From a virus, in the IMG/VR virus record IMGVR_UViG_3300017917_001562, positions 44,582 to 108,581 of that record: 64,000 bases of DNA, one strand, 5' to 3'. The notes under the pieces are model-generated. The model searched no databases. It saw only the letters and a program-made list of their open reading frames with translations, and had not been told where the DNA came from. The translations under genes and the position numbers were made by a program. Position 1 is the first letter of the stretch. Each line of letters opens with the position of its first letter. Positions 1,262 to 39,535 of this stretch are shown here, piece after piece.

Positions 1262-1549
1262 TTACATCCATTTTAATCTAAACCAATTGGCATCTTCTGG
1301 AGATTCAAAAGCTATTTTTACGCCTTGAATTTTATATTCACTTTGGCAATTTTCTTTTAACCAATCTCTTTTTTGTTGACATAAATTATCTGTGACCATA
1401 TGATTGGTAACATGAACAACATATCCGGACCCAAGAGCATTGTTTACCAATGTCCACCCCGATACTTCTACCCAAACACTAAAGTCTATTTCGTATTGAA
1501 CCTGCTCAGCTAGTTGATTTAGAATGTGTTCTTGTATATTATTGTTCAT
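1262..1549 (-). CDS. LRW-family small protein
   Basis: WLKEN core; ends FESPEDANWFRLKWM. Confidence 0.75.
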   Translation of the reverse strand: MNNNIQEHILNQLAEQVQYEIDFSVWVEVSGWTLVNNALGSGYVVHVTNHMVTDNLCQQKRDWLKENCQSEYKIQGVKIAFESPEDANWFRLKWM

Positions 1550-1551
1550 TG

Positions 1552-1773
1552 TTAACTCCATCTAAGACAAAAAGCTGTCAGTGTCGGTTTATCGGGCAAC
1601 ACCACAGTCATACCTTGGACCTTACTTTTATTTTGTTTACACCACACTTGTAGATCATCGTAGTGTATATTCCAGTATGCTATGTCTGACAGCACAATCA
1701 ACAATTCGCCGCCTGTTACTAGCGTATCAGGAATAATGAATCTTCGTCGGTGACCGTTGTCAAGTAAACTCAT
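1552..1773 (-). CDS. LRW-family small protein
   Basis: WCKQN core; ends TAFCLRWS. Confidence 0.75.
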   Translation of the reverse strand: MSLLDNGHRRRFIIPDTLVTGGELLIVLSDIAYWNIHYDDLQVWCKQNKSKVQGMTVVLPDKPTLTAFCLRWS

Positions 1774-2129
1774 CTTACTAAGTTTAACATGGTTTGATAT
1801 TGTTGCCAAAGATCTTGAAGTCCGGGATGTTGATGTCTAAGCCTAGTTTCTTCTTCTTGCTTATATACAATTTCTTGAATATCTCGCTTTAGGTCTACTG
1901 CATGTTGCTTTTCTTCCAACCATTGATCGTGTTCCATTAAAGCACGAAAACGATCTTCAGGCATGTGAATTTCTACACAAGTAAGATCCTCATATGGATT
2001 ATTGTTATAAATGTTTGGATCACTGGCCCATATTTTATAATCAACTCGTCTTACTCGTCTATGCATTTTTGTACTAGGCACTACATAAGCATCATATTTG
2101 TAACAAAACTCTGTAAAATCTTTTGTCAT
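1770..2129 (-). CDS. hypothetical phage protein (not LRW family)
   Basis: 119-aa ORF; ends HPGLQDLWQQYQTMLNL. Confidence 0.7.
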   Translation of the reverse strand: MTKDFTEFCYKYDAYVVPSTKMHRRVRRVDYKIWASDPNIYNNNPYEDLTCVEIHMPEDRFRALMEHDQWLEEKQHAVDLKRDIQEIVYKQEEETRLRHQHPGLQDLWQQYQTMLNLVR

Positions 2130-2130
2130 T

Positions 2131-2415
2131 TTAACTCCATTTTAATAACCATAAAGCTATATCGTCTTTATGTGTAAATCCCCACCATTCTTGTTGATTA
2201 TGAAAGTCGGAACTGTAAGACAGAATTTGGCCGCGGCAATGCAAATTACACCAAGTCCAGTATTCGTTGGAAAATTTAACAGGTTTAACACAAACAAACC
2301 ATTTACTGGGCTTGTGCGGTTTAACTTGTTCTGGCACCCAAAGTCCACTATCATCGTCACCAAGTCCTGGGCGAATATCGTTCCAAAATTCTTTGAACTG
2401 CTTTCGATTTATCAT
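2131..2415 (-). CDS. LRW-family small protein
   Basis: WC core; ends DDIALWLLKWS; start overlaps the upstream stop (ATGA). Confidence 0.75.
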   Translation of the reverse strand: MINRKQFKEFWNDIRPGLGDDDSGLWVPEQVKPHKPSKWFVCVKPVKFSNEYWTWCNLHCRGQILSYSSDFHNQQEWWGFTHKDDIALWLLKWS

Positions 2416-2624
2416 GACCACTTCAACAATGTTAACAAGGCTTTTTTCTCGTCTGCGAAATGCCAAGTAGTACCATAAGTGGGGCTCCTTAGATTCATAT
2501 CATATGTACGCCACCAGTCTTGTTTAAACTCACCTACATAAGTTTCTAACCACTCATTAAATGATACATCTGGTACTAATGAACGATGAAGACCCTTGAG
2601 TTGACTTTGATGTATTTTATTCAT
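2412..2624 (-). CDS. LRW-family small protein
   Basis: WLETYVG core; ends FADEKKALLTLLKWS. Confidence 0.75.
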   Translation of the reverse strand: MNKIHQSQLKGLHRSLVPDVSFNEWLETYVGEFKQDWWRTYDMNLRSPTYGTTWHFADEKKALLTLLKWS

Positions 2625-2626
2625 AC

Positions 2627-2857
2627 TTACGCCCATCGCAGTTTCCATATTACATATAGTTCTGGAGTCAAGTATAAAGCAGTATTACTGTCGGGATCAT
2701 CTCGCATTGGTCGCCATAAATCAGGATCTTGCACTCGGATCCACTCAAACATACCCTCGGGGGTCCTAAATCCTTCAAAGCTTGGATCATCAAAACAATA
2801 TGTTTTGTATCCGTGTGTAAAAAGTTCGTAACGACCGTTGCGTGGCAAATGACTCAT
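2627..2857 (-). CDS. LRW-family small protein
   Basis: ends YVIWKLRWA. Confidence 0.75.
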   Translation of the reverse strand: MSHLPRNGRYELFTHGYKTYCFDDPSFEGFRTPEGMFEWIRVQDPDLWRPMRDDPDSNTALYLTPELYVIWKLRWA

Positions 2858-3066
2858 CGGTTTCCTTTTAAAATAAACCACACAGCATCCTGCTCACGCT
2901 CAAACCACACTGTTCGACTACCGTAGTAGAGATAGAACTTACCAGGCGAATCCATTAACTGCAATTCACGCTTGAGTTGGGCATAGTTCCAATTTAGGTT
3001 GATTGTGCGTAGAACAGGATGCCAGTGCTGTTGCCGAACCTTTTTATCTTTGTTCCAATATTTCAT
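2854..3066 (-). CDS. LRW-family small protein (variant end)
   Basis: ends WFEREQDAVWFILKGNR. Confidence 0.75.
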   Translation of the reverse strand: MKYWNKDKKVRQQHWHPVLRTINLNWNYAQLKRELQLMDSPGKFYLYYGSRTVWFEREQDAVWFILKGNR

Positions 3067-3290
3067 GACCACCTTAATATAAACCAACTCATATCTTTAC
3101 GAGCATCCGGATAATCTAAAAAATAAAAATTAATTAAATCGTGTGTAATAGTATTACCATCACTGTGATATTGATTAGTAATGTAATGTGGACAGTTTTT
3201 CTTTGCCCATTGAATAGCACTATACAAATCAAGTTTACTACGGTCTACTGTTATGTAGTTATCAGTAATCTTCATATGCCAGTTGTCCAT
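3063..3290 (-). CDS. LRW-family small protein
   Basis: WAKKNC core; ends DMSWFILRWS. Confidence 0.75.
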   Translation of the reverse strand: MDNWHMKITDNYITVDRSKLDLYSAIQWAKKNCPHYITNQYHSDGNTITHDLINFYFLDYPDARKDMSWFILRWS

Positions 3291-3502
3291 CAACTCCACC
3301 TTAACAAAAATGCTGTATAATCTTCTTCATGCTCAAATACCGCAGTAACAAACTTGTTGTCTTTGTCCTCGACCATTTTGCAGCCAAACTCCTGTAACCA
3401 TTTTTTTCGGCTTTCTTCTAGTCCCAACGACTGAACACCAAGTGTTTCACGCCACGCACGACGAAACATTGAATGATGCTTTTTTAAATCTACTTCAATC
3501 AT
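3290..3502 (-). CDS. LRW-family small protein
   Basis: ends FEHEEDYTAFLLRWS. Confidence 0.75.
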   Translation of the reverse strand: MIEVDLKKHHSMFRRAWRETLGVQSLGLEESRKKWLQEFGCKMVEDKDNKFVTAVFEHEEDYTAFLLRWS

Positions 3503-3558
3503 GACCACCTCAATGCTAGCATTGTAGCATGATTTGCATATTTTCGTCTAACAAATTG

Positions 3559-3639
3559 ATAAATAAAAATGCGAGTCGCGATGCGTCAACATCCACCCGC
3601 CCTAACAGTTGAAAAGGAACTATCAGCATGAATATTTAT
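3559..3639 (+). promoter_or_regulatory. structured leader of the GIY-YIG gene (TAAATA, bulged hairpin, RBS-occluding hairpin, opposing TAAATA)
   Basis: same architecture with compensatory stem changes at 37259-37336. Confidence 0.65.
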
Positions 3640-4002
3640 TCCCCGGCACGACCCCCATCTGGGTATTATGTTTACGCATATATAAGATCAAAAGATTCGA
3701 AAACAGGTAAAGCAGGGACTCCGTATTACATTGGTAAAGGCAAGGGCAATCGAGCCACTCGACGTCACGGAAAAAACCCTATTCCAGATTTTGATTTCAT
3801 AGCAATATGTGAAGAAAATTTAACTGAAATTGGTGCATTAGCGATTGAACGATTCCTTATACGTGTTTGGGGGAGAAAAGATATCGGTACCGGAATTTTG
3901 TTAAACAGAACAGACGGCGGGGATGGGACATCGGGTAGATCAGCAGAGTCAATCTGCACCCAAACTGCGCCACCAAGGTCTACCCATCTTGGATCATTAT
4001 GA
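3628..4002 (+). CDS. GIY-YIG homing endonuclease, truncated after the catalytic domain
   Basis: YVYAY...YYIGKG...R...E...[10 protein letters not shown] motifs; the last ~20 aa are antisense of the interrupted gene. Confidence 0.8.
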
Positions 4003-4150
4003 TCTACAATTAAAGGGCCCACAGGCCACCTTACTTTGATAACAACACCAGGAACAAACCTCCACCAAAGTTTTTGCCAAATGTTTAATCCGCAAGGCAA
4101 ATATCTGCCAGACGGCAATTGAAATAAACTTTTAATTTCCCACTTAGCCA

Positions 4151-4552
4151 TTATGAATATTTCAATGCTATCATTACGGCATCTTGCTCATTGTTAGTTG
4201 CTACAAACACTTTATCCTCACCGCCTAGTTCGTTTACTGTCCATTCCCAATCAGTAGAAGGCTCACACATAACACGATGAAACTCCCAAACAGCATTTTC
4301 ACCTAAAGCACGAGCAGGCCAAAAATAATGTTTTGTATCTTCTCGCACGGTCCACCCAAACGGTTGTTCTAAGTTAAAAAACTTGTTAGGATCAACGATA
4401 ACAATATGTTTAAAATTTCTAAAAATATCTTTGATACGAGTAGCACGGACATTAACGGTTTGTTCATACCATGCCTTATACTCACGCTCTGCTTTTGTAT
4501 AACCAGTTGTGCGAGTAAGATACCAATCTTTGATATTGTCGAATAAAATCAT
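4151..4552 (-). CDS. LRW-family protein (longer variant)
   Basis: ends NNEQDAVMIALKYS. Confidence 0.75.
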   Translation of the reverse strand: MILFDNIKDWYLTRTTGYTKAEREYKAWYEQTVNVRATRIKDIFRNFKHIVIVDPNKFFNLEQPFGWTVREDTKHYFWPARALGENAVWEFHRVMCEPSTDWEWTVNELGGEDKVFVATNNEQDAVMIALKYS

Positions 4553-4555
4553 GGT

Positions 4556-4795
4556 TTATTCTGCTAATACTTCAAACAGTTCAGCATACTGTGTTTCGGG
4601 TTCATCAACGAATCCAGTATAGACCCATACTCTGCGACAATAAACTTTTTTAAGCCACACCCAACGGTTGTTAATAGTTTTATGCGGCAACAACACAAAT
4701 GTTTCAACCCAGTCGTGTTCTACCGCGGTTATGTCGCCTATGTTTGGGATAAACATTGCTCCTCTAACTATTTCTTTAAATAGGGAAAAACTCAT
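4556..4795 (-). CDS. hypothetical phage protein (not LRW family)
   Basis: W...F.LLP.KT...WVWLKKVY pattern, loosely like 16283..16540. Confidence 0.65.
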   Translation of the reverse strand: MSFSLFKEIVRGAMFIPNIGDITAVEHDWVETFVLLPHKTINNRWVWLKKVYCRRVWVYTGFVDEPETQYAELFEVLAE

Positions 4796-5013
4796 GCCCA
4801 CCTTAACGCTAATAAAATGTAAATTTTTTCATGAACATCAAATACATTATAGTTGATATGCCATTTTTCGTCAATGTTTTGAAACCATTGTTTATCTTCC
4901 TGCTCACAGAAAGATGTTCTTAACCAAATACTAACTTCTTTTTTACAAGATATAGTATACCAAGATTCATTATTAACTATAGCCTTAGTCCTTACTTTGA
5001 AGTTAGATTTCAT
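4792..5013 (-). CDS. LRW-family small protein
   Basis: ends YILLALRWA. Confidence 0.75.
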   Translation of the reverse strand: MKSNFKVRTKAIVNNESWYTISCKKEVSIWLRTSFCEQEDKQWFQNIDEKWHINYNVFDVHEKIYILLALRWA

Positions 5014-5258
5014 ACCCACCTCAACGCAAACATAGTATATTTTTTCTCATCTACCACTGCAACCTGCACAACTTCGTATCCGTGCCTACCATATATATCT
5101 TGTTTAGGACATAGATCTAATCTGAGCCCGGCTGTTTGTTCAATATGATACTTAAACCCAAGCATACGGTCCTCTCCAGAACTGGGCCAATCTGGGTCAT
5201 ATTCCATATAACATTTGTTTAGCAAACGATTTACGGATTTTGTATCTATAAATCTCAT
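5010..5258 (-). CDS. LRW-family small protein
   Basis: ends VDEKKYTMFALRWV. Confidence 0.75.
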   Translation of the reverse strand: MRFIDTKSVNRLLNKCYMEYDPDWPSSGEDRMLGFKYHIEQTAGLRLDLCPKQDIYGRHGYEVVQVAVVDEKKYTMFALRWV

Positions 5259-5467
5259 GAGCTCCACCTCAATGCAAACATAGTTGCATCCTTGCTATTG
5301 CGGAAGTAATAATCCACACCCTTCATTGAGGGCACTCGATTCCAGCGACCTTTAAACGGGCCCATGTTTTCGCCTAGCCATTCCTCAATCTTGTAATGCC
5401 CGGCGTGATCCATGGGCATAGAGATAGGAATCTTTGCTGGCCAAATTTCTTTCTTTAGTTGTCTCAT
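5255..5467 (-). CDS. LRW-family small protein
   Basis: WLGENMG core; ends FRNSKDATMFALRWSS. Confidence 0.75.
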   Translation of the reverse strand: MRQLKKEIWPAKIPISMPMDHAGHYKIEEWLGENMGPFKGRWNRVPSMKGVDYYFRNSKDATMFALRWSS

Positions 5468-5754
5468 GACCACCTCAACTCTAAGAATGTTACCATTTCC
5501 GGAGGAACTAAGAATACACTTTCAAACCATAGGTACCATGTGAACTTTTCTCGTGAGAAATGTTCGTTCATCCACACAACCTCTGGACCTAATACATCTA
5601 CGCAAACATAATCTTCATATCCCATGGGAGGGGCACGGCCAGTATCAACACGCGGCGGAATCAGGAATGTTGATTCATATTCGGCCAACCATTTAGCGTG
5701 AGCGGCTAGTTCGTTATCCGGTATCAGAGCAACACTTTGGAAATTTACTTTCAC
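5464..5754 (-). CDS. LRW-family small protein
   Basis: GTG start in a GTGA overlap; ends VTFLELRWS. Confidence 0.75.
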   Translation of the reverse strand: MKVNFQSVALIPDNELAAHAKWLAEYESTFLIPPRVDTGRAPPMGYEDYVCVDVLGPEVVWMNEHFSREKFTWYLWFESVFLVPPEMVTFLELRWS

Positions 5755-5984
5755 GACCACCTCAACATAAACCAAGTATACGCTTGTTCATCATAAAAGT
5801 CAATATACCTATCACCGTAACCGCTTAACGGATTTATGGGTTTGGCTATCCAAAAGTTTGCCGACCAGTCCATGAGAGCATGATTGATTTCTTCCTCGCC
5901 AAAACTATCTGGTAAAAAGTTATACCACCATCTTGGGATTTCAGATGGATGGCGATCTTCTTCAAATATCTTTATTCTAATCAT
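5751..5984 (-). CDS. LRW-family small protein
   Basis: ends FYDEQAYTWFMLRWS. Confidence 0.75.
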   Translation of the reverse strand: MIRIKIFEEDRHPSEIPRWWYNFLPDSFGEEEINHALMDWSANFWIAKPINPLSGYGDRYIDFYDEQAYTWFMLRWS

Positions 5985-6190
5985 GACCACCTCAACACAA
6001 ACATCATATAATCATCTACACGGCGAAATTCAAATACACCTTCACTAACATAACGCCAGTTCTGTTCCTTGAATCGTCCTCTACACCATTCCATCGCAGG
6101 CAACCAGCCCCAGTGCTCATACTCCTTGTGTGCAGGTTGAGGCACACTTGCAATAATCCAACTGTTGATAGGATTTCTTGGCAATTTCAT
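5981..6190 (-). CDS. LRW-family small protein
   Basis: EWC core; ends FRRVDDYMMFVLRWS. Confidence 0.75.
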   Translation of the reverse strand: MKLPRNPINSWIIASVPQPAHKEYEHWGWLPAMEWCRGRFKEQNWRYVSEGVFEFRRVDDYMMFVLRWS

Positions 6191-6441
6191 GACCACCTCA
6201 GAATAAACATACTAGCGTCTTTTTCTTTTTCAAACATCCAGATGCTACCTCGACCTTGATGGTTACCTTGTAAGTTTTCTCTGCACCATTTTTTGATTTC
6301 GTATATCTGCGTCTCGTGCATCCTTGCGGGCCACTTTATCTCAACCTTTGTATAGCCTAGTTTAATCATCATGTCGCACATGATTTCCCAGTCTGTTTCT
6401 TCCTGGAGGGTTTTTGCAAGGTCTTGTTTTATTATTGTCAT
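6187..6441 (-). CDS. LRW-family small protein
   Basis: WCREN core; ends FEKEKDASMFILRWS; 'ETDWEI' resembles 'EIDFSV' of 1262..1549. Confidence 0.75.
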   Translation of the reverse strand: MTIIKQDLAKTLQEETDWEIMCDMMIKLGYTKVEIKWPARMHETQIYEIKKWCRENLQGNHQGRGSIWMFEKEKDASMFILRWS

Positions 6442-6659
6442 GACCACCTCAACATAAACAAAGTAGCATGTGCGGGATCAGAAAACCACATTACATATCC
6501 AGAGCCGGGTTCTAGTCGCCAGTAGTGTTCGCTAGCTGGTTTTCCATATTGACAGTTATTAGGACTACCAAAAGTTTTTAAACACCATGCCCACCAAACA
6601 GGCAGGCCTTGTTGATTATATACATGTCTATGTTTCATGGGTACAATTACAATATTCAT
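6438..6659 (-). CDS. LRW-family small protein
   Basis: WCLKTFG core; ends FSDPAHATLFMLRWS. Confidence 0.75.
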   Translation of the reverse strand: MNIVIVPMKHRHVYNQQGLPVWWAWCLKTFGSPNNCQYGKPASEHYWRLEPGSGYVMWFSDPAHATLFMLRWS

Positions 6660-6901
6660 GACCACCTCAACGCAAATAACATAGCCTTTTTTTCGTCTAC
6701 GATAGAGATCATAGTATCACCTAACCTTGCGCTATACACTCCCCACTCATCGCCCGCTTCAGGCTCAATATCAATGCCGTCAGGCCAACTATTTTTTAAC
6801 CAACGGCCACCGGGTCCTACATTGTTGTATAACCAATGTTCTAACTCTACAAACTGTATCCGGTGTTTGCTCATAATGGTAGTAGCATCAAAGTTAATCA
6901 T
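6656..6901 (-). CDS. LRW-family small protein
   Basis: WLYNNVG core; ends DEKKAMLFALRWS. Confidence 0.75.
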   Translation of the reverse strand: MINFDATTIMSKHRIQFVELEHWLYNNVGPGGRWLKNSWPDGIDIEPEAGDEWGVYSARLGDTMISIVDEKKAMLFALRWS

Positions 6902-7146
6902 GACCACCTCAGCGTTGTAAGCATCATGTCTTGCTCAAATTCAAAATAAAATCGGCCGGTTGATTCACAAAAACTATATCGGCCATGGCTGGGATAATTG
7001 TTACACCAGTTTACAATAGCTGCTTCTTTAACGAGCCATTCTAAAGTACCAGTATCGTAACTATCGAACTCTTCCTTATTCCAAAAGTTAGTAGAGTCTA
7101 CAACATATTTGAAATTTTCTATGTCTAAGTTGGCTATTTTCTTCAC
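6898..7146 (-). CDS. LRW-family small protein
   Basis: GTG start; ends FEFEQDMMLTTLRWS. Confidence 0.75.
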   Translation of the reverse strand: MKKIANLDIENFKYVVDSTNFWNKEEFDSYDTGTLEWLVKEAAIVNWCNNYPSHGRYSFCESTGRFYFEFEQDMMLTTLRWS

Positions 7147-7355
7147 ACCCACCTCAACAGTGCAAACATTCTATCTTTTTCATTTGTAATATACCACAAG
7201 TCAACACCATTAAGTGTGCCCTGGTATTCTGTTTCTATAGAATTTTTTTCACACCACTTATGAAAGTTTATTCTTTGCTGTGAGCTAACAGTAAAGCCCC
7301 GCGGATCACCTACTAATTTTACTCTGCCCTTTTCTGCAAAAACTTTAGTGGTCAT
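7143..7355 (-). CDS. LRW-family small protein
   Basis: WCEKN core; ends NEKDRMFALLRWV. Confidence 0.75.
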   Translation of the reverse strand: MTTKVFAEKGRVKLVGDPRGFTVSSQQRINFHKWCEKNSIETEYQGTLNGVDLWYITNEKDRMFALLRWV

Positions 7356-7555
7356 GCCCACCTCAGTGCAAACCACTCTTTGTTTTCTCTAACTTGAAAT
7401 ATGTATCCGTTAGAGCCTGAACTTAGAAGAAAGTATTCTACTTTGTTTTCGCGCATCCAACCGTAGATGTCAAGCCACTCCTGAAATGTGCGAACAAGGT
7501 AAGTAGGGTAACCTGCCCAACCTGGGTAGCTAGTAGATTCGACTTTCATATTCAT
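7352..7555 (-). CDS. LRW-family small protein
   Basis: WMREN core; ends EWFALRWA. Confidence 0.75.
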   Translation of the reverse strand: MNMKVESTSYPGWAGYPTYLVRTFQEWLDIYGWMRENKVEYFLLSSGSNGYIFQVRENKEWFALRWA

Positions 7556-7562
7556 TGTGTTA

Positions 7563-7901
7563 TCAATCATGAAAATCGTAATCGTAGCAGTGTCTAATTT
7601 CGTGTCCTAAATTTGAAGTGCTGGTGTTGGTACCTGTAATTACAGTACACTGATCACCTCGCCAAACAGCACAACCAACAATTCTATTTTTACCAAATCT
7701 ACCATTGGTGCTTTTATCACAGATTTGTTGCAGCTCTTGGTCAGACACTTGACGCCAAGTAATAGTTCTTACTCTTGTTTGTGATTTAGCAGTACTGATG
7801 TGTTCGGCGTTGTATTCCCATGCCTTAACGGGGTTGACAGGTTGAGCACTACAACCAGATACTGCTGCAACAATCGCAAAAACTAAAGACATTTTTTTCA
7901 T
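7563..7901 (-). CDS. lipoprotein with HExxH zinc-peptidase-like motif
   Basis: signal peptide with lipobox VSGC; LGHEIRHC near the C-terminus. Confidence 0.7.
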   Translation of the reverse strand: MKKMSLVFAIVAAVSGCSAQPVNPVKAWEYNAEHISTAKSQTRVRTITWRQVSDQELQQICDKSTNGRFGKNRIVGCAVWRGDQCTVITGTNTSTSNLGHEIRHCYDYDFHD

Positions 7902-7902
7902 G

Positions 7903-8127
7903 TTAATTCCACCTTAACAAAAACATTGTCAAATCTTTTTGATTTTTAAATTCAAACATATCGTAGGCAATCCTGTAACCACAATGATTTTCCCTGCACC
8001 ATTCTACCATTTCAGCTATAGGATAGCCTAAATAATGACCTTCTTGATCAAGTATAAATTCATCCACCGAAATTTTTACAGCAAGCCTAAGCCTTGGATC
8101 TGGTTCAATGGCGTAGGCTTTGCTCAT
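7903..8127 (-). CDS. LRW-family small protein
   Basis: EWCREN core; ends FKNQKDLTMFLLRWN. Confidence 0.75.
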   Translation of the reverse strand: MSKAYAIEPDPRLRLAVKISVDEFILDQEGHYLGYPIAEMVEWCRENHCGYRIAYDMFEFKNQKDLTMFLLRWN

Positions 8128-12688: not shown

Positions 12689-12730
12689 AATATTTGATCT
12701 TACTGTATATTTATGCCTTAATATACGCAG

Positions 12731-33960: not shown

Positions 33961-36624
33961 TCACTCAAAGCTAAACAGTGTTGTAAAAGTAGATCTAATG
34001 TCAGTGGCTTCGCCTAAGTTCCATTCCAACACACCCAACAAGTTATCTATCTTTTGGTCAACAATGGTATCTTCCATGTTGTTGTCATCAAATGGCAAGT
34101 CTTTAAACCACTGCGGAATGTGTGTTTCATCTGTAGGATATGCTACGCTGGTATAACCTAAAGGATTATCTTTGACTTTACAAACAATAACTTTCATACC
34201 ATCAGTGATAGACAAACTGTAGTTGTCACTGTGCATACGACGCAGGTTGTTCCAGTTCATGGCTGCACGAACATGTCCTGGCATGTTAGCTTTGCCTAGT
34301 CTTACTTCTTCTGCGGTATACTTGGTTAAGTTATTAACACGCTTGGGTGTACCTTTCTCCCACGGCGGCCGCTCTTGGAACTGATATTTAAATTCTTTAA
34401 TTTTTTCTACAACGGTGTCACGATCAATGCCAGTTAGTACATCCAATAAAATTTCACTTAAAAAGTCTTGTACAATCTTTGGTGTATCACTGCGCTTAAG
34501 ATCTAGGCCCATAGCCTTAACTTTACCTGGCTTGCCGTTAACATCCTGTCGCTTGCCTTCTTTATCATAGATAAGAACAGCATAACGCTTTTTCTTAATA
34601 AACAGGCCTTTAGTAGCAATAAGTTCACGGCCACCTTTAATGATAGCACCGTTTTCTCGGGGACAATGACAGGCTCGTTCCATAAATGCAGGAAAGCTTT
34701 CATTGACTTGATCTGCTATGTTGTCATAGACCTGTATGGCAATGTCTTTGTTCCATTCCATACGACCTGCTTCTACATCTGCTCTAACAGCAGGCCACGC
34801 ACTGAAATAAACACTGTCAGTGTCACCGTATATGATTGCATCCCCTACATGGTCATACTTGCCTGTAATTGCTTCATTGACAAAACTGTCCATGTGTTTA
34901 GCAATAGTTCTACCAGTTAGAGTTGTACTTTGACCAATACGCTGATCAAAGAATCTACAGCCTGGATTTAAAATAGCACCATACAAACTGTTCAAGTTAA
35001 TTTTCTTAACTAACTGTCGTTTGTCCCAATATTCTTGATCTTCGGGAGTTGTGGCTTCTTTTAGTTTAGCCTGCATTTGTTTTCGTTCAGCATACCAACG
35101 CTCCAACAAACCTGGCACAATACCTTTCCGTTCGTAAGTAAAGATAGTACCATTGGCACTTAATGTCCATGGTTTATTGCTGTCAAAGATAATGCGCCAA
35201 ACATCTGCTGCACTGACAATGTCACTGGTACCATCCTGTTCCCAGTCTATGGTAATTTCTACACTGGGATCACCACGCATCACTGCTTCATATTCAAGAC
35301 TACCAAACAAACCTTCCCACGCAGCCGCAAAGCTGTCTCCGGAGGCAATTTTATCTTGAATATACTTTTCAGTCATTATAGGTCTTAATTGACCTACGAT
35401 TGTTTCCGGTCCCATGTTAAGGGCTCGAATAGCCGAGGGATAGAGCGAGTTGATGTCAATGGCGCCGATGTACTCGTGCATACCTCTTTTGGGGTAAGCA
35501 ACATAGGCACCTGCTGCCTGCGTTTCTCCATCTTCTTCTCTACCTTTCCTGTTAGGTACGACCAATCCTTGCCTGTGTGCTTCATTGATAATTGCCTGTT
35601 CTGTAGTTGCTACGGCACCCAATGTTGTCTGCAATAACACCGTGTTATCGTGAGCAATGGTATTTGCCAAATCTAAGAAACGAAGTTTCTTATCCAGTTT
35701 CGCTATCAAGCGAGTATCTTGTCTGTTATACACTAAAAACTTTTCAAAGTCTTTGTTGTATAATTGATCTAGTGTACCTTCATAAGGTGTCTTTCTTTCG
35801 TCAAGTTCGTATTCGCCAATGGCATCCAAACTATAACTATGCCGTTCTTCGTATGTATATTTGCGATACAACTGCATATAGTCCATATGCACACGACCAA
35901 TTAAGTCAAAGGTTGTATTAACAGCACCAAATCGTTCAAACTCTCGTTGCTTGGGAAACTGACCCCACAAACACATACGGCGTGTATCGTCTTTACTCAG
36001 CACACGAGTAATACGGCCAATGGTATATGGAATGTCATAGCCTTCACTGTTCCAACCCGTTAAAATGTCTGCGTCATCGATCAAGTTTAAGAATGTGTCC
36101 AGCATATCCTCTTCACGGTCGAAGATATAACAGTTATCAAACTTAGCACAGATTTCTTCAGCAGTGGCCCAGCTCATTGATTTGGGAGGAATGGCCAGCG
36201 TGACTAATTTGTCTAACCAATCTAAATAAACAGATATAGCGGTAATGTTATTGAATGGATCAGTTGTTGGTGCAAAGCCTCGTTCAGGGTCAAAGTTTGC
36301 TTCAATGTCAAAAAACGCTACATTTAGTTTAGGAGGCTCAGCACCTAAATAGTTTTCTTCAAGACACCTGAATACAGGCTTAAAGTCACTTTCCCAAAGC
36401 CTTTTACCGCTTTGTACTCTAAGTTCTTTTTGGAATTCTTTGCCGTTGCGTGTGGCAAATCTAGTTACCGGAGTACCGTAGATGGTACGATGTTTACCTC
36501 GGGGGTCATCATAATAAAACACATAGTTAGCGGGATATTCTTGGTACTGTCTTTGACCGTTTATCCGTTCAACTACATGGATTCTATCACGCTGTTTGTC
36601 AAATAATGCGTCAATGTAGGACAT
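33961..36624 (-). CDS. family B DNA polymerase
   Basis: ExoI FFDIE, ExoII GWNSEGYD, ExoIII YNRQD, DINSLYPS, KINLNSLYG, YGDTDS, KKRY. Confidence 0.97.
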   Translation of the reverse strand: MSYIDALFDKQRDRIHVVERINGQRQYQEYPANYVFYYDDPRGKHRTIYGTPVTRFATRNGKEFQKELRVQSGKRLWESDFKPVFRCLEENYLGAEPPKLNVAFFDIEANFDPERGFAPTTDPFNNITAISVYLDWLDKLVTLAIPPKSMSWATAEEICAKFDNCYIFDREEDMLDTFLNLIDDADILTGWNSEGYDIPYTIGRITRVLSKDDTRRMCLWGQFPKQREFERFGAVNTTFDLIGRVHMDYMQLYRKYTYEERHSYSLDAIGEYELDERKTPYEGTLDQLYNKDFEKFLVYNRQDTRLIAKLDKKLRFLDLANTIAHDNTVLLQTTLGAVATTEQAIINEAHRQGLVVPNRKGREEDGETQAAGAYVAYPKRGMHEYIGAIDINSLYPSAIRALNMGPETIVGQLRPIMTEKYIQDKIASGDSFAAAWEGLFGSLEYEAVMRGDPSVEITIDWEQDGTSDIVSAADVWRIIFDSNKPWTLSANGTIFTYERKGIVPGLLERWYAERKQMQAKLKEATTPEDQEYWDKRQLVKKINLNSLYGAILNPGCRFFDQRIGQSTTLTGRTIAKHMDSFVNEAITGKYDHVGDAIIYGDTDSVYFSAWPAVRADVEAGRMEWNKDIAIQVYDNIADQVNESFPAFMERACHCPRENGAIIKGGRELIATKGLFIKKKRYAVLIYDKEGKRQDVNGKPGKVKAMGLDLKRSDTPKIVQDFLSEILLDVLTGIDRDTVVEKIKEFKYQFQERPPWEKGTPKRVNNLTKYTAEEVRLGKANMPGHVRAAMNWNNLRRMHSDNYSLSITDGMKVIVCKVKDNPLGYTSVAYPTDETHIPQWFKDLPFDDNNMEDTIVDQKIDNLLGVLEWNLGEATDIRSTFTTLFSFE

Positions 36625-36928
36625 AAGTTTGTAATATTAACTTAATTAGGCCAGTACTGTCAATGGTTGCTAACAATACATAATTGCCAAATATACCAAA
36701 ACTACCGCGGCTGTAAGCACAGCCTGCACTGATTGTACAACCAATAATAAAGGCCGCATAAAGTGGGATAAATGGTAAGTTGGGAACTGTGATAGCATAG
36801 GTAAGACTGCAACCAATGCTGATTGCCCATGCTATCATTTCAAACACAAATCTTACTTTATGACTGCGCCAATCATTAACAATAAATTCTTTGGCACCAG
36901 CCCACCAGCTTTTAACGCTTTCGGTCAA
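36611..36928 (-). CDS. small membrane protein
   Basis: three hydrophobic segments. Confidence 0.65.
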   Translation of the reverse strand: MTESVKSWWAGAKEFIVNDWRSHKVRFVFEMIAWAISIGCSLTYAITVPNLPFIPLYAAFIIGCTISAGCAYSRGSFGIFGNYVLLATIDSTGLIKLILQTYVLH

Positions 36929-37197
36929 AGAGTTTTTCCTACAGTTTCAAGAATAGTATTCAATTCATCGTGGTCGCGATTGGTTTCGCCTAGCTTGGCT
37001 TTATGTGCAATCTTAATTGCTTTTTTCAGTGTGGCCGGTTTAATTTCTAGTTCTTCGGCAATGGCCTTAATGGTTTCATTAAGACCCTCGTTAAGGGTAT
37101 CAACTTCTTGAAGCACGGTCATGCCTTCTGTAATTAATTGCGTCAATTTGATTTTGGCTTCGCCGTTGAAGCTGCGTGAGTATCCAGAGTCTGACAT
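36925..37197 (-). CDS. small dsDNA-binding protein (T4 DsbA/GapR-like)
   Basis: helical 90 aa, L.E.IKAIAEELEIKP..LKKAIKIAHK. Confidence 0.55.
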   Translation of the reverse strand: MSDSGYSRSFNGEAKIKLTQLITEGMTVLQEVDTLNEGLNETIKAIAEELEIKPATLKKAIKIAHKAKLGETNRDHDELNTILETVGKTL

Positions 37198-37258
37198 ATT
37201 AGATCCTTTATAAAAATGTTATTGTAAATTATTGAAAAGTAAAAATCAATTTAATTGG

Positions 37259-37336
37259 ATAAATATTAGTGTAGTTCGCGGAGCGGGAACTCCCAACTAC
37301 TCTATGATTGAAAGGAATCACAGCATGAATATTTAT
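37259..37336 (+). promoter_or_regulatory. structured leader of the GIY-YIG gene, copy 2
   Basis: ATAAATATT...AATATTTAT inverted repeat enclosing GTAGTT-CGC-GGAG-loop-CTCC-C-AACTAC and GATT-GAAAGG-AATC hairpins. Confidence 0.65.
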
Positions 37337-37915
37337 TTTAAACCCACCTACCTGTATATTAAACAACACAACATAACAGGATTGAAATACTTTGGGAAAA
37401 CAGTTAAACTTGATGTGTTTAAGTATAAAGGATCGGGTAAACATTGGTCGAGACATTTAAAGAAATACGGTAATGATGTTACTACTGTTTGGCACCAACT
37501 TTTTCACAATAAAGAAGAATTAGTTGAATTTGCTACTAAGTTTTCTATAGATAACGACATTGTGAATTCCCCGCAGTGGGCCAACTTAAAAATAGAAGAT
37601 GGGTTATGGGGTGGTGGGGTAAAAGGTATAAAACTAAAGCCCATGTCTCTGGAACATAAAGCAAAGTTATCAGAGTCGGTTAAAAATGCATACGAGAAAA
37701 AAGGTTGCAAAATAAAAGACAGAACTCCCCTTGTTATCAAAACTAAAGTTAAAAAAGTAGGATGGACTTGGGAAAAGGAAAGTAAAGAAAGGCACTCATT
37801 GCGTCAATTGGGAATTCCAAAAAGACGAATGTGTTGTGTACATTGCAAAAAAGAAGGTAGCATAGCTAATATTCTTCAATGGCACGGTGATAAATGTAAA
37901 ATGAACCCTGTTTAG
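37325..37915 (+). CDS. GIY-YIG-like homing endonuclease
   Basis: YLYIKQH..TGLKYFGKT, YKGSG.HW, WANL..EDG..GG, NUMOD3-like SLEHKAKLS, C-terminal CxxC..WH..KC; paralogue of 18555..19175. Confidence 0.85.
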   Translation: MNIYFKPTYLYIKQHNITGLKYFGKTVKLDVFKYKGSGKHWSRHLKKYGNDVTTVWHQLFHNKEELVEFATKFSIDNDIVNSPQWANLKIEDGLWGGGVKGIKLKPMSLEHKAKLSESVKNAYEKKGCKIKDRTPLVIKTKVKKVGWTWEKESKERHSLRQLGIPKRRMCCVHCKKEGSIANILQWHGDKCKMNPV

Positions 37916-37980
37916 TATAACAAGTAGCGAATTTGTTATACTAGGCGCGGGTTCCCGCCTACCCGGTCCTAAGGCCAAGG
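37911..37980. ncRNA. GC-rich structured intergenic element (candidate ncRNA/terminator)
   Basis: TAGTATAACAA/TTGTTATACTA hairpin plus AGGCG/CGCCT and CGGGT/ACCCG pairings. Confidence 0.45.
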
Positions 37981-37981
37981 T

Positions 37982-39097
37982 CTATTTGCTCAATAATATA
38001 TTTAATTCAGGCCAAAGTTCTTGAAAACTATATTTTGGTATAATGACCTGTTCCATTTGTTGTATCCAATCTAAAAATCGTTTTGATTTAGTGGAGTCTT
38101 CAATATCATCTAATAAACTTTGTTTTACACCAGTTAAAAAAATATCATCAAATCCCAAACTATCTATTTCTTGTACAGCTAAATCTCTTATTGGTTTACT
38201 GTGTCCAAATGATAAAAAACTATCTGTAGATAAATTATATGGATCATTGCTAGCAAGTCCTAATTGCCAATTAACTCTTAAATTGCCTTTGCTGTCAGCA
38301 AATTCATATAATTCTTTTAATCTTGTTGCATTGAAAATAGTATATACTGGGTGTAAAGTAACATTGTTGGTTGTAAAATCTATTTTAAGTTGCTGGATAT
38401 TTTTACATAGTAAATCCCAATCACCGCCTGCCCTTACATATTCAAATCGATCTTCTATATTATCAAAACTTAAATTCCAATAAGTTTTTGGAAAGTTTAA
38501 AAGTTTTTCATAGATTTTGTTTTTTGTCAAATCAACACTACCGTTTGTAAGTACATCAATTTTAACATGTTTAGGCAACATATCTAACAATCGTATATTG
38601 TTTTTTTGCAGTAAGGGCTCGCCACCTAACAAATAAACACATTCAATTGTATCTAAGTTTTCTTCTATTAGGTCAAATAATGATTCTGTGTAATCTCTAT
38701 TAACAGATTCTATAGGTAAGTTTCTTATTTTTCGCCATTCGCTGCTGTCATGTGTGTTACAATACCTGCAAGTTAAATTGCAGACATTGCTCCAGCGGAT
38801 ATCAATTAGTTTTAATTTTCTATATTCTTGTCGAGGAAATTGATCATTGAATGCTGACCATTGGCTACTGCCTGGTGCTGTTGATTCTATGCTATAACAA
38901 CCTGAACAATAGTTATTTGCTTTACCATTCTTTAGATCATGTTGTAGTTGAATAAATTTGCTTTTTTGAAAAATTTGCTGTACAGGTTCTTGCCTTACAC
39001 TACCCAAAGGCACCGACCCACTACAGCATAAACCAACATAGCCGTTCACAGACACGAACAGCCCTGTGTCTACAGCACTACAGTAATAATCTTTCAT
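37982..39097 (-). CDS. radical SAM protein with SPASM/twitch-like N-terminal domain
   Basis: N-terminal C..G.V.LCC...CSGC; CNLTCRYC; GGEP; TNG. Confidence 0.85.
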   Translation of the reverse strand: MKDYYCSAVDTGLFVSVNGYVGLCCSGSVPLGSVRQEPVQQIFQKSKFIQLQHDLKNGKANNYCSGCYSIESTAPGSSQWSAFNDQFPRQEYRKLKLIDIRWSNVCNLTCRYCNTHDSSEWRKIRNLPIESVNRDYTESLFDLIEENLDTIECVYLLGGEPLLQKNNIRLLDMLPKHVKIDVLTNGSVDLTKNKIYEKLLNFPKTYWNLSFDNIEDRFEYVRAGGDWDLLCKNIQQLKIDFTTNNVTLHPVYTIFNATRLKELYEFADSKGNLRVNWQLGLASNDPYNLSTDSFLSFGHSKPIRDLAVQEIDSLGFDDIFLTGVKQSLLDDIEDSTKSKRFLDWIQQMEQVIIPKYSFQELWPELNILLSK

Positions 39098-39100
39098 TAA

Positions 39101-39535
39101 TTATTTAAGACTGGCTCTCAGCATCCAACCATGTTTTTGGTGTGCGTCTAGTCTTTCAGCTAAAAAGTTGCTGAGACCGTGTTGACCTTCGCGTTCTGCT
39201 AGGTCGTAGACCAATTTGATTACCTTAAGAATCTTATCGTTGTCAGCAAGTAATTCTGCAACCATTTGATCCTTGGGCAACACATCAGTTTCATCTTCAA
39301 TTTGGGTAAGCATACTTAAGCGTGTATAACTACCGGGAGTATAGCTGCCTAGTTTACGAATGTTTTCAGCAAAAGAATCAATACTGCCATACACTTCTTC
39401 GTAAATTTTACCAAACAAGTCATGATACTCTAAAAAGTCTGAACCTTCTACATTCCAATGAAAGTAGTGTGCTTTTAGATAAAAACTAAATTCTGTGCTG
39501 AATGCAATTTTCATTGCTTTTACTAATTCGTCCAT
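39101..39535 (-). CDS. dps: Dps family ferritin-like DNA-protection protein
   Basis: HYFHWNVEG..F...H.LF..IYEE...D.FAE.IR, KHGWML. Confidence 0.92.
   Translation of the reverse strand: MDELVKAMKIAFSTEFSFYLKAHYFHWNVEGSDFLEYHDLFGKIYEEVYGSIDSFAENIRKLGSYTPGSYTRLSMLTQIEDETDVLPKDQMVAELLADNDKILKVIKLVYDLAEREGQHGLSNFLAERLDAHQKHGWMLRASLK

Follow-up and report, generated by a model that had tools for sequence, protein, structure and literature searches.

Homing endonucleases must be expressed strongly enough to spread, and not so strongly that the phage is harmed. In the T-even phages and Aeh1 the known controls are gene-specific hairpins and promoters, the endonuclease genes I-TevI, I-TevII, I-TevIII, segB and mobE combining a late promoter with an mRNA hairpin that sequesters the ribosome-binding site (RBS) (PMC2988022). 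T4 late promoters carry TATAAATA centred near -10 (PMC2988022, PMC2984593). In marine 'fractured genes', Dassa et al. (2009) described conserved, mutually complementary motifs in the 5' untranslated regions (5' UTRs) of two endonuclease families, with TATAAATA in 10 of 16 cases, and read them as mRNA hairpins (PMC2677866). CfrI of cyanophage S-PM2, an antisense RNA of about 225 nt that links psbA to an endonuclease gene, has been seen experimentally (PMC2984593). In IS10/Tn10, a 69-nt stem-loop antisense RNA, RNA-OUT, is made from pOUT inside the transposase gene and pairs with the translation initiation region of RNA-IN, blocking ribosome binding (PMC5006887). Here we describe two copies of a portable control cassette of about 80 bases, which head nuclease genes at positions 3559-3639 and 37259-37336 of a 64,000-nt window (bases 44582-108581 of the 108,581-base IMG/VR virus record IMGVR_UViG_3300017917_001562, estimated to be about 31% complete).

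As read here, this cassette would combine two known kinds of regulation: a mobile-element gene held in check by a cis-antisense RNA, and homing endonucleases controlled by late promoters. We hold with moderate confidence that it consists of convergent late promoters which would give a cis-antisense RNA of 65-70 nt over the endonuclease 5' UTR, restraining the nuclease.

The two copies and their minus-strand fold

The two copies, A and B, head endonuclease genes A and B, respectively, and contain the following features:

3559-3565, plus strand: late-promoter-like ATAAATA of copy A (GATAAATA from 3558), with a 5-nt spacer at 3566-3570
3571 (G), plus strand: mRNA +1 of copy A, predicted from T4 late-promoter geometry
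3571-3600, stable on both strands: hairpin 1 of copy A (GCGAGT/C/G/C/GATG/loop CGTCAA/CATC/C/ACCCGC)
3602-3626, minus strand: hairpin 2 of copy A (CUGAUAGUU / CCUUUUC / AACUGUUAG; nine pairs, two of them G.U)
3627 (complement of C), minus strand: predicted antisense +1 of copy A
3633-3639, minus strand: facing ATAAATA of copy A, within codons 2-4 of gene A
37259-37265, plus strand: late-promoter-like ATAAATA of copy B (GATAAATA from 37258), with a spacer at 37266-37270
37271 (G), plus strand: predicted mRNA +1 of copy B
37271-37300, strand unassigned: hairpin 1 of copy B (GTAGTT/C/G/C/GGAG/loop CGGGAA/CTCC/C/AACTAC)
37302-37323, minus strand: hairpin 2 of copy B (CUGUGAUU / CCUUUC / AAUCAUAG; eight pairs, one of them G.U)
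37324 (complement of C), minus strand: predicted antisense +1 of copy B
37330-37336, minus strand: facing ATAAATA of copy B, within codons 2-4 of gene B

The 16-mer CAGCATGAATATTTAT is common to both copies and occurs twice in the window against 0.11 occurrences expected; the 15-mer AGCATGAATATTTAT, taken out of it, occurs twice in the whole record, and the two cassettes are the only ones in its 108 kb. A covariance model built from 29 homologues scores them 78.4 and 86.5 bits (E about 1e-15 to 1e-17). The initial annotation of the locus had described a structured leader shared by the two stretches, and both read as claimed: all the named stems pair, and the differences between the copies (four pairs in stem 1, two in stem 2 and two in the RBS hairpin) are compensatory, apart from one A.C in copy A. 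Likewise, the codons for M-N-I-Y spell ATAAATA on the minus strand (3639-3633 and 37336-37330). Two details had to be revised. The supposed CGC/C internal loop is a bulged C, a G:C pair and a second bulged C, as judged by RNAalifold on the 29 homologues, and this pair covaries to A:U. In addition, the ATG of gene B is at 37325.

The consensus of the homologues (see below) begins on the plus strand with [ACGT][AC]TAAATA and a purine-rich, C-free spacer of 5 nt, after which a G forms the first base of hairpin 1. This hairpin starts with a 6-bp stem, continues with one pair (G:C, A:U or A.C) set between two bulged Cs and then with 4 bp more, and closes in a variable loop of 6-7 nt; its TCGCG...CCA core with the two bulges is invariant among homologues. 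The consensus then ends with YCTA, hairpin 2 holding AGGAG, CAGC, 5 nt and TATTTA.

The strand on which these hairpins form was assessed by folding 62 distinct copies on both strands and comparing them with shuffled sequence. Hairpin 2 reached a mean of -7.97 kcal/mol on the minus strand (z -2.74), against -3.02 kcal/mol on the plus strand (z -0.4), where it was no better than shuffled, and it was the stabler on the minus strand in all 62. The whole element behaved in the same manner, with z scores of -2.34 on the minus and -0.86 on the plus strand, and again all 62 copies were stabler on the minus strand. In 122 of 126 distinct segments the minus-strand minimum free energy (MFE) structure of hairpin 2 closes with C-G, U-A and G.U; it has 8.7 pairs on average, of which 20% are G.U. 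Pair 4 is A-U in 68 cases, G.U in 24, G-C in 16 and U-A in 12, and pair 5 is U-A in 48, U.G in 29, A-U in 19, C-G in 13 and G-C in 6. The covariation of hairpin 2 passes through wobble intermediates that exist on the minus strand only: the 75 cells that are G.U on this strand are A.C mismatches on the plus strand (26% of cells).

Forty-eight minus-strand sequences were aligned with MAFFT (A4); in this alignment the minus structure with its two hairpins is 98.3% paired, against 77% in shuffles and at most 41% with the partners slid. Compensatory changes occur in 14 of the 17 pairs, and none of 500 shuffles reached any of five measures, so that the element is conserved and covarying, as the initial annotation had held. 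Covariation in hairpin 1 is seen in 10 of its 11 pairs, its middle pair being G:C in 46 copies, A:U in 9, A.C in 6 and G.U in 1. Its non-Watson-Crick cells on the plus strand (17 A.C against 6 G.U) lean to the minus strand as well; however, nearly all its pairs are Watson-Crick and hence either strand forms this hairpin. In minus-strand hairpin 2 the loop is an anti-Shine-Dalgarno sequence, its counterpart in both window copies being AAGGA on the plus strand (3614-3618 and 37312-37316), and a YUNR motif is present in 60% of these loops compared to 27% of their complements. The fold of hairpin 2 is selected on the minus strand, opposite the gene, and a conserved stable structure accordingly stands on the antisense strand.

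Portability of the cassette and its nuclease genes

A search of viral contigs with the two nuclease proteins gave 97 loci, referred to here as the protein-retrieved set. In these loci a covariance model (R1), built from 29 copies selected by regular expression, found 75 elements, 62 of them distinct, and all 75 lie on the strand of the gene, directly upstream of the open reading frame (ORF). A pattern scan in which hairpin 1 was linked to CAGC-N5-TATTTA added at least 120 further viral contigs. The ORFs behind the pattern matches share starts of the type M-x-I-Y, M-I-F or M-S/T-S-x-x-I-Y; beyond these the proteins are unrelated. Among the downstream ORFs, Pfam recognised HNH, HNH_3, GIY-YIG, SegE_GIY-YIG, DUF559, DUF7487 and NUMOD3, and the DUF7487 ORFs carry TnsA-like or MTES_1575 nuclease signatures. 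Since it heads GIY-YIG, HNH, HNH_3, DUF559 and DUF7487/TnsA-like nucleases, the cassette is portable and serves at least three unrelated nuclease folds in uncultured T4-like giant phages. The earlier suggestion that the leader may move independently of its nuclease is consequently well supported.

Several contigs carry two cassettes within a few kb, each heading a different endonuclease gene (L057:2589-2681, L038:2478-2573, L013:3140-3242, L119, L120 and L113); in L119 the two are on opposite strands.

In named phages the cassette is rare. Megablast of both loci gave no match to named phages, and blastn of a consensus-like copy gave only a partial match, to Variovorax phage V45v66; with the model, the only named phages with a copy were this one (one copy, at 85989-86080 of its record) and Pseudoalteromonas phage vB_Psh_XG4, where the copy is diverged. 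The cyanophage homologues of gene A (S-SRM01, B23, S-N03 and ACG-2014f) are without the cassette, and two complete 360-kb relatives (G001 and G002) gave no model match at E 0.01, with about 150 of some 165 first-look candidates scored in each. Rfam 15 had no match in the window at gathering thresholds, and at E values up to 10 the only match in 3500-3700 was a 6-bit chance match.

The two genes headed by the cassette in the window are:

3628-4002, plus strand: endonuclease gene A, 124 amino acids, phrog_15526, GIY-YIG-like catalytic domain only
37325-37915, plus strand: endonuclease gene B, 196 amino acids, N-terminal GIY-YIG domain of I-TevI/Seg type

By their modelled folds, the products are GIY-YIG nucleases. 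They belong to different subfamilies, as the initial annotation had stated; BLASTP between them gives E 0.15, and the Pfam GIY-YIG models stay below threshold for both. In gene B, model residues 10-92 resemble the I-TevI catalytic domain 1ln0_A (Z 7.0, root-mean-square deviation 2.9 A over 81 residues). Whole-model Foldseek was noisy, and the assignment was resolved by a wide structural search in which 1ln0_A was clearly the top row, the following rows being GIY-YIG too. The C-terminal part of gene B matches phrog_655 (homing endonuclease).

For gene A, the top 11 matches of the fold search are all GIY-YIG domains, at weak E values of 0.05-0.2, and the motif YVYAY...YYIGKG...R...E...N is invariant in alignment A5. 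Its profile gave only weak matches to PDB sequences (an I-TevI DNA-binding domain at E 0.21 and a GIY-YIG protein at E 0.9), which were not retained. The relatives of gene A are 184-226 amino acids long, and tblastn spans only about 105 residues of them. NUMOD3, present in five of the seven aligned proteins, was found neither in the 124-residue ORF nor in any frame downstream (window 3628-4150); gene A has no DNA-binding module that would give site specificity. Lacking the NUMOD3 tail, it resembles an endonuclease gene in decay that retains an intact control cassette.

Facing promoter motifs, a proposed antisense RNA and its rivals

A T4-type late-promoter motif (TATAAATA / NATAAATA) is present on either side of the structure, both copies reading GATAAATA on the plus and AATAAATA on the minus strand. 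The 8-mer found at the promoter of the homologues is TATAAATA in 17, GATAAATA in 13 and ACTAAATA in 11, and the plus-strand TAAATA most often lies 5 nt from the first base of hairpin 1 (36 of 54, the modal spacing). With regard to the opposite motif, of 46 elements for which hairpin 1 was the only anchor, 44 have TATTTA placed 5 nt past CAGC. Its frame relative to the start codon varies within the protein-retrieved set, being frame 2 (x-I-Y) at offsets 5, 8, 14, 17 and 23, frame 1 (M-I-F) at offsets 4 and 13, and frame 0 (M-Y-L) at offset 3; when the ATG is 9 nt upstream, CAGC becomes part of the coding sequence and the protein starts M-S-S-x-N-I-Y. In the rest of these ORFs ATT makes up just 43% of Ile codons and T just 32% of third positions. 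The use of three frames, together with the low use of ATT and T elsewhere, indicates that TATTTA is conserved as DNA and placed by hairpin 2 rather than by the start codon. At sequence level, then, the first codons of the nuclease gene contain a promoter motif directed against the one that precedes the gene, and the overlapping antisense RNAs proposed in the initial annotation are plausible, given facing TAAATA motifs that are conserved at the nucleotide level, at fixed spacing and in three frames.

Within the record, ATAAATA behaves as a promoter signal would be expected to: it is depleted, its 17 copies comparing with 39-96 for each permutation of these letters, and 9 of them are intergenic though the record is 93% coding. 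Several copies stand 5-30 nt ahead of start codons, for example at window positions 12714, 51942 and 59576 (minus strand), and the two cassettes account for four copies with their facing motifs. ATAAATA thus marks a likely late-promoter set of this phage. The record also has a dsbA-like gene.

By T4 geometry, both RNAs would start with G at a hairpin foot. The two late promoters would face each other about 57 bp apart, from predicted start to predicted start. From the plus promoter the endonuclease mRNA would begin at the first base of hairpin 1 and thereby carry a 5'-terminal hairpin. From the minus promoter, in codons 2-4, an antisense RNA would begin a single base ahead of hairpin 2, the loop of which would present the anti-Shine-Dalgarno sequence CUCCUU. 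This RNA would extend past hairpin 1 and probably stop within the U-rich tail, at about 65-70 nt, and would be complementary to the whole endonuclease 5' UTR up to the AUG. Pairing could nucleate at the complementary loops and block the Shine-Dalgarno sequence, the antisense RNA limiting translation, mRNA stability or both, and the convergent promoters could add mutual transcriptional interference. Minus-strand hairpin 1 has a mean of -11.5 kcal/mol and is followed by the tail A-Y-U-U-U-U-A-U-U-U-A-U, which has on average 6.8 U in 12 nt and almost no G, and which is the complement of the plus promoter and its purine-rich spacer; in copy A, the hairpin is followed by AUUUUUAUUUAU. In composition the tail is similar to that of an intrinsic terminator. 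We infer from these signals that both TAAATA motifs fire, that the antisense RNA represses and that it ends after hairpin 1.

Some points weigh against this proposal. The pattern-scan loci were selected for TATTTA, so that only the protein-retrieved set is unbiased for this motif. A consensus terminator scan calls no terminator at either copy, the stem being bulged and the U tract broken by A. Promoters of the same class would fire together, which leaves a timing switch unexplained. Finally, a terminator has no need of the two bulges that are invariant in hairpin 1, and these are not accounted for. In antisense RNAs such as CopA, bulged stems are needed for fast pairing and for protection from RNase III, and the bulges of hairpin 1 recall stems of this type; they may instead mark a protein site. 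A wider reading, which we put forward only tentatively and consider unlikely, takes the cassette as a self-contained, exchangeable sense/antisense module that recombination has carried into three or more nuclease superfamilies within a large clade of uncultured T4-core phages. The double-bulged hairpin would then be a docking site for a dedicated phage or host RNA-binding factor, or a CopA-like kissing device, and co-resident copies would be kept orthogonal by stems and loops that covary fast, each antisense RNA throttling only its own endonuclease.

Another explanation is that the minus-strand structure is part of a longer outward transcript, rather than of a discrete small RNA, either as a terminator or insulator that halts transcripts of the host operon once they have crossed the inserted gene in antisense or as a 5' stabiliser or processing site of RNA running on into the neighbouring gene. 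This bears on the neighbouring genes and their promoters, for which the relevant features in the window are:

3521-3550, minus strand: sigma-70-like promoter TAGACG-18-TACAAT with TG, a consensus match only, serving the gene at 3290-3508 and outside the cassette
37221-37249, minus strand: sigma-70-like promoter TTGATT-17-TACAAT, serving the dsbA-like gene at 36925-37197, resident and outside the cassette
37914-37943, minus strand: degenerate ancestral dsbA promoter TAGTAT-18-TATACT, abutting the stop of ORF B and pointing antisense into gene B

In most of the 24 relatives compared, the dsbA-like gene has a similar promoter ahead of it regardless of the gene further upstream. In five relatives that lack the homing endonuclease gene (L235, L236, L237, L261 and L264; 77-80% DNA identity), the radical-SAM gene adjoins the dsbA-like gene, and the empty site (e.g. 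L235:2371-2520) holds TTGACT-17-TATAAT and a Shine-Dalgarno sequence between the radical-SAM/SPASM and dsbA-like genes. Because these relatives have this promoter there, the degenerate one at 37943-37914 appears to be its ancestral remnant; the homology of the window to the empty-site relatives ends at 37955. In many other cassettes, too, a strong -35/-10 pair comes next on the minus strand, its distance differing from one to another.

An outward role would fit the frequent inversion of the endonuclease relative to both neighbours (21 of the 33 pattern-scan loci with enough flank, the others being co-oriented in 7 and mixed in 5), the ancestral remnant directed into gene B, and the position of the hairpin and its U-rich tail just upstream of the neighbour's own promoter. 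The protein-retrieved loci nevertheless speak against it. With a divergent upstream neighbour (33 loci), TATTTA is present in 29 and hairpin 2 has -8.4 kcal/mol on the minus and -3.0 on the plus strand; with a co-oriented one (27 loci), TATTTA is present in 23 and the values are -7.5 and -3.1. The fold and TATTTA are equally kept in these 27 loci without a downstream minus-strand gene, and an insulator against read-through needs no dedicated TAAATA 5 nt from hairpin 2. We therefore judge the outward transcript unlikely. That the antisense features are the same for both orientations of the neighbour argues for a function directed at the endonuclease gene itself. It also makes doubtful the earlier proposal that the cassette supplies a promoter to the minus-strand genes it interrupts: with sigma-70-like promoters of their own, the neighbours are independent of its internal TAAATA, and such a supply is unlikely as judged from these promoter matches.

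In some contigs a canonical G+C-rich hairpin flanked by T/A runs on either side, i.e. a bidirectional terminator, stands immediately ahead of the plus promoter, and in others a strong divergent promoter of the sigma-70 type does (examples are L014, L023, L133 and L190). The cassettes seem to be located at the boundaries of operons.

Somewhat less likely still is the mRNA model of the initial annotation, in which a 5' hairpin and an RBS hairpin restrain translation, taken together with a TAAATA/TATTTA helix that would mask the site in read-through transcripts. It can draw on hairpin 1, which forms on the mRNA too, on the ability of TAAATA and TATTTA to pair (the MFE structure of copy B has a 9-bp closing helix), and on precedents in T4 I-TevI, gene e and Aeh1 mobE (PMC2988022) and in the marine fractured-gene endonucleases (PMC2677866). 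However, the weakness of hairpin 2 on the plus strand, no better than shuffled and with A.C in 75 cells, does not support a structure that is chiefly an mRNA leader with an RBS-occluding hairpin. An RBS hairpin with embedded promoter, of the I-TevI/mobE type, was not found either, as the promoter lies upstream of hairpin 1; the only helix containing it is an A-U helix of 6-9 bp without covariation. Long-range pairing of TAAATA with TATTTA was not favoured, since the bases flanking the hexamers show no covariation (28 paired where 26.3 are expected, and 31 where 27.6 are), and an inverted insertion leaves little upstream plus-strand transcription to mask.

Least of all do we favour an element acting as DNA, through hairpins extruded for recombination (e.g. 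cassette shuffling) or protein recognition: the unrelated genes that share the cassette must have gained it by recombination, G.T is tolerated in DNA hairpins as well and the double-bulged core is invariant, but the element fits exactly between the promoter motifs and the start codon, holds the Shine-Dalgarno sequence and has a structure starting at the predicted +1 on both strands, and nothing in the analysis points to a DNA-binding partner, which makes this very improbable.

Phage setting and comparison with known systems

The family-B DNA polymerase at 33961-36624 (minus strand) is nearest to those of jumbo T4-core myoviruses, with 52% identity to Sinorhizobium phage Phosso, 47% to Agrobacterium phage Atu_ph07 and 42% to Rak2-like coliphages. 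The minus strand carries 103 of the 132 ORFs, and endonuclease genes A and B are both on the plus strand among minus-strand genes. At 1262-7950 (minus strand) there is a long array of small overlapping ORFs (about 70-110 amino acids), most with an L-(R/K)-W-S/A ending. Its junction repeat, TCATGACCACCTCA on the plus strand and TGAGGTGGTCATGA on the coding strand, comprises a stop, the Shine-Dalgarno-like GAGGTGG and a start, and the array looks like a paralogous family with translational coupling. A gene for a radical SAM protein with a SPASM domain (Pfam) at 37982-39097 (minus strand) adjoins a 144-amino-acid ORF at 39101-39535 (minus strand), which by eye resembles a Dps/ferritin-like protein; the two are unusual auxiliary genes next to the replication module.

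One cassette common to GIY-YIG, HNH and PD-(D/E)xK-like nucleases would be a general solution to the problem of endonuclease expression. The cassette shows that regulatory modules are shuffled among endonuclease genes besides nuclease and DNA-binding domains. If the proposal is true, it would be the first antisense-RNA control proposed for the selfish genes of homing endonucleases. The cassette would also be a compact bidirectional late-promoter unit, testable in T4-type phages, and its covariance model a sensitive marker of free-standing endonuclease genes in metagenomic phage contigs.

A portable cassette selected on the antisense strand was found neither in the literature searched nor in Rfam. 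The T-even and Aeh1 genes resemble it in belonging to homing endonucleases of T4-type phages, with a late promoter immediately upstream, RNA structure at the RBS and expression that is low and late; the statement in the initial annotation that T4 homing endonuclease genes use late promoters and RBS-occluding hairpins agrees with the published work (PMC2988022). In those genes, however, the promoter lies inside the masking hairpin, the structure is that of the mRNA, the sequences are gene-specific and an antisense promoter has not been described, whereas the cassette has its promoter ahead of the structure, shows selection of the RBS hairpin on the other strand and represents one conserved family. 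The motifs of Dassa et al. (2009) share free-standing endonucleases of uncultured phages, of GIY-YIG and Vsr-like families; they differ in being read as mRNA hairpins and in genes that are co-oriented within split host genes. Compared by description only, they may be the same or a related cassette. CfrI is likewise an antisense RNA of a T4-like phage that overlaps a homing endonuclease gene, but it is not a conserved portable cassette, and the cyanophage homologues of gene A that were tested are without the element.

IS10 comes nearer. Here, too, a mobile-element gene has a second promoter in its 5' end that faces its own promoter, and the geometry, size and logic match those proposed for the cassette. 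IS10 differs in its sigma-70 promoters, its residence in a bacterial transposon and its single long stem-loop; the cassette has phage late-type promoters and two hairpins, one of them double-bulged, is shared by unrelated nucleases and is known from sequence alone. By analogy of arrangement, RNA-OUT of IS10 is the closest worked-out parallel to the antisense RNA that we propose.

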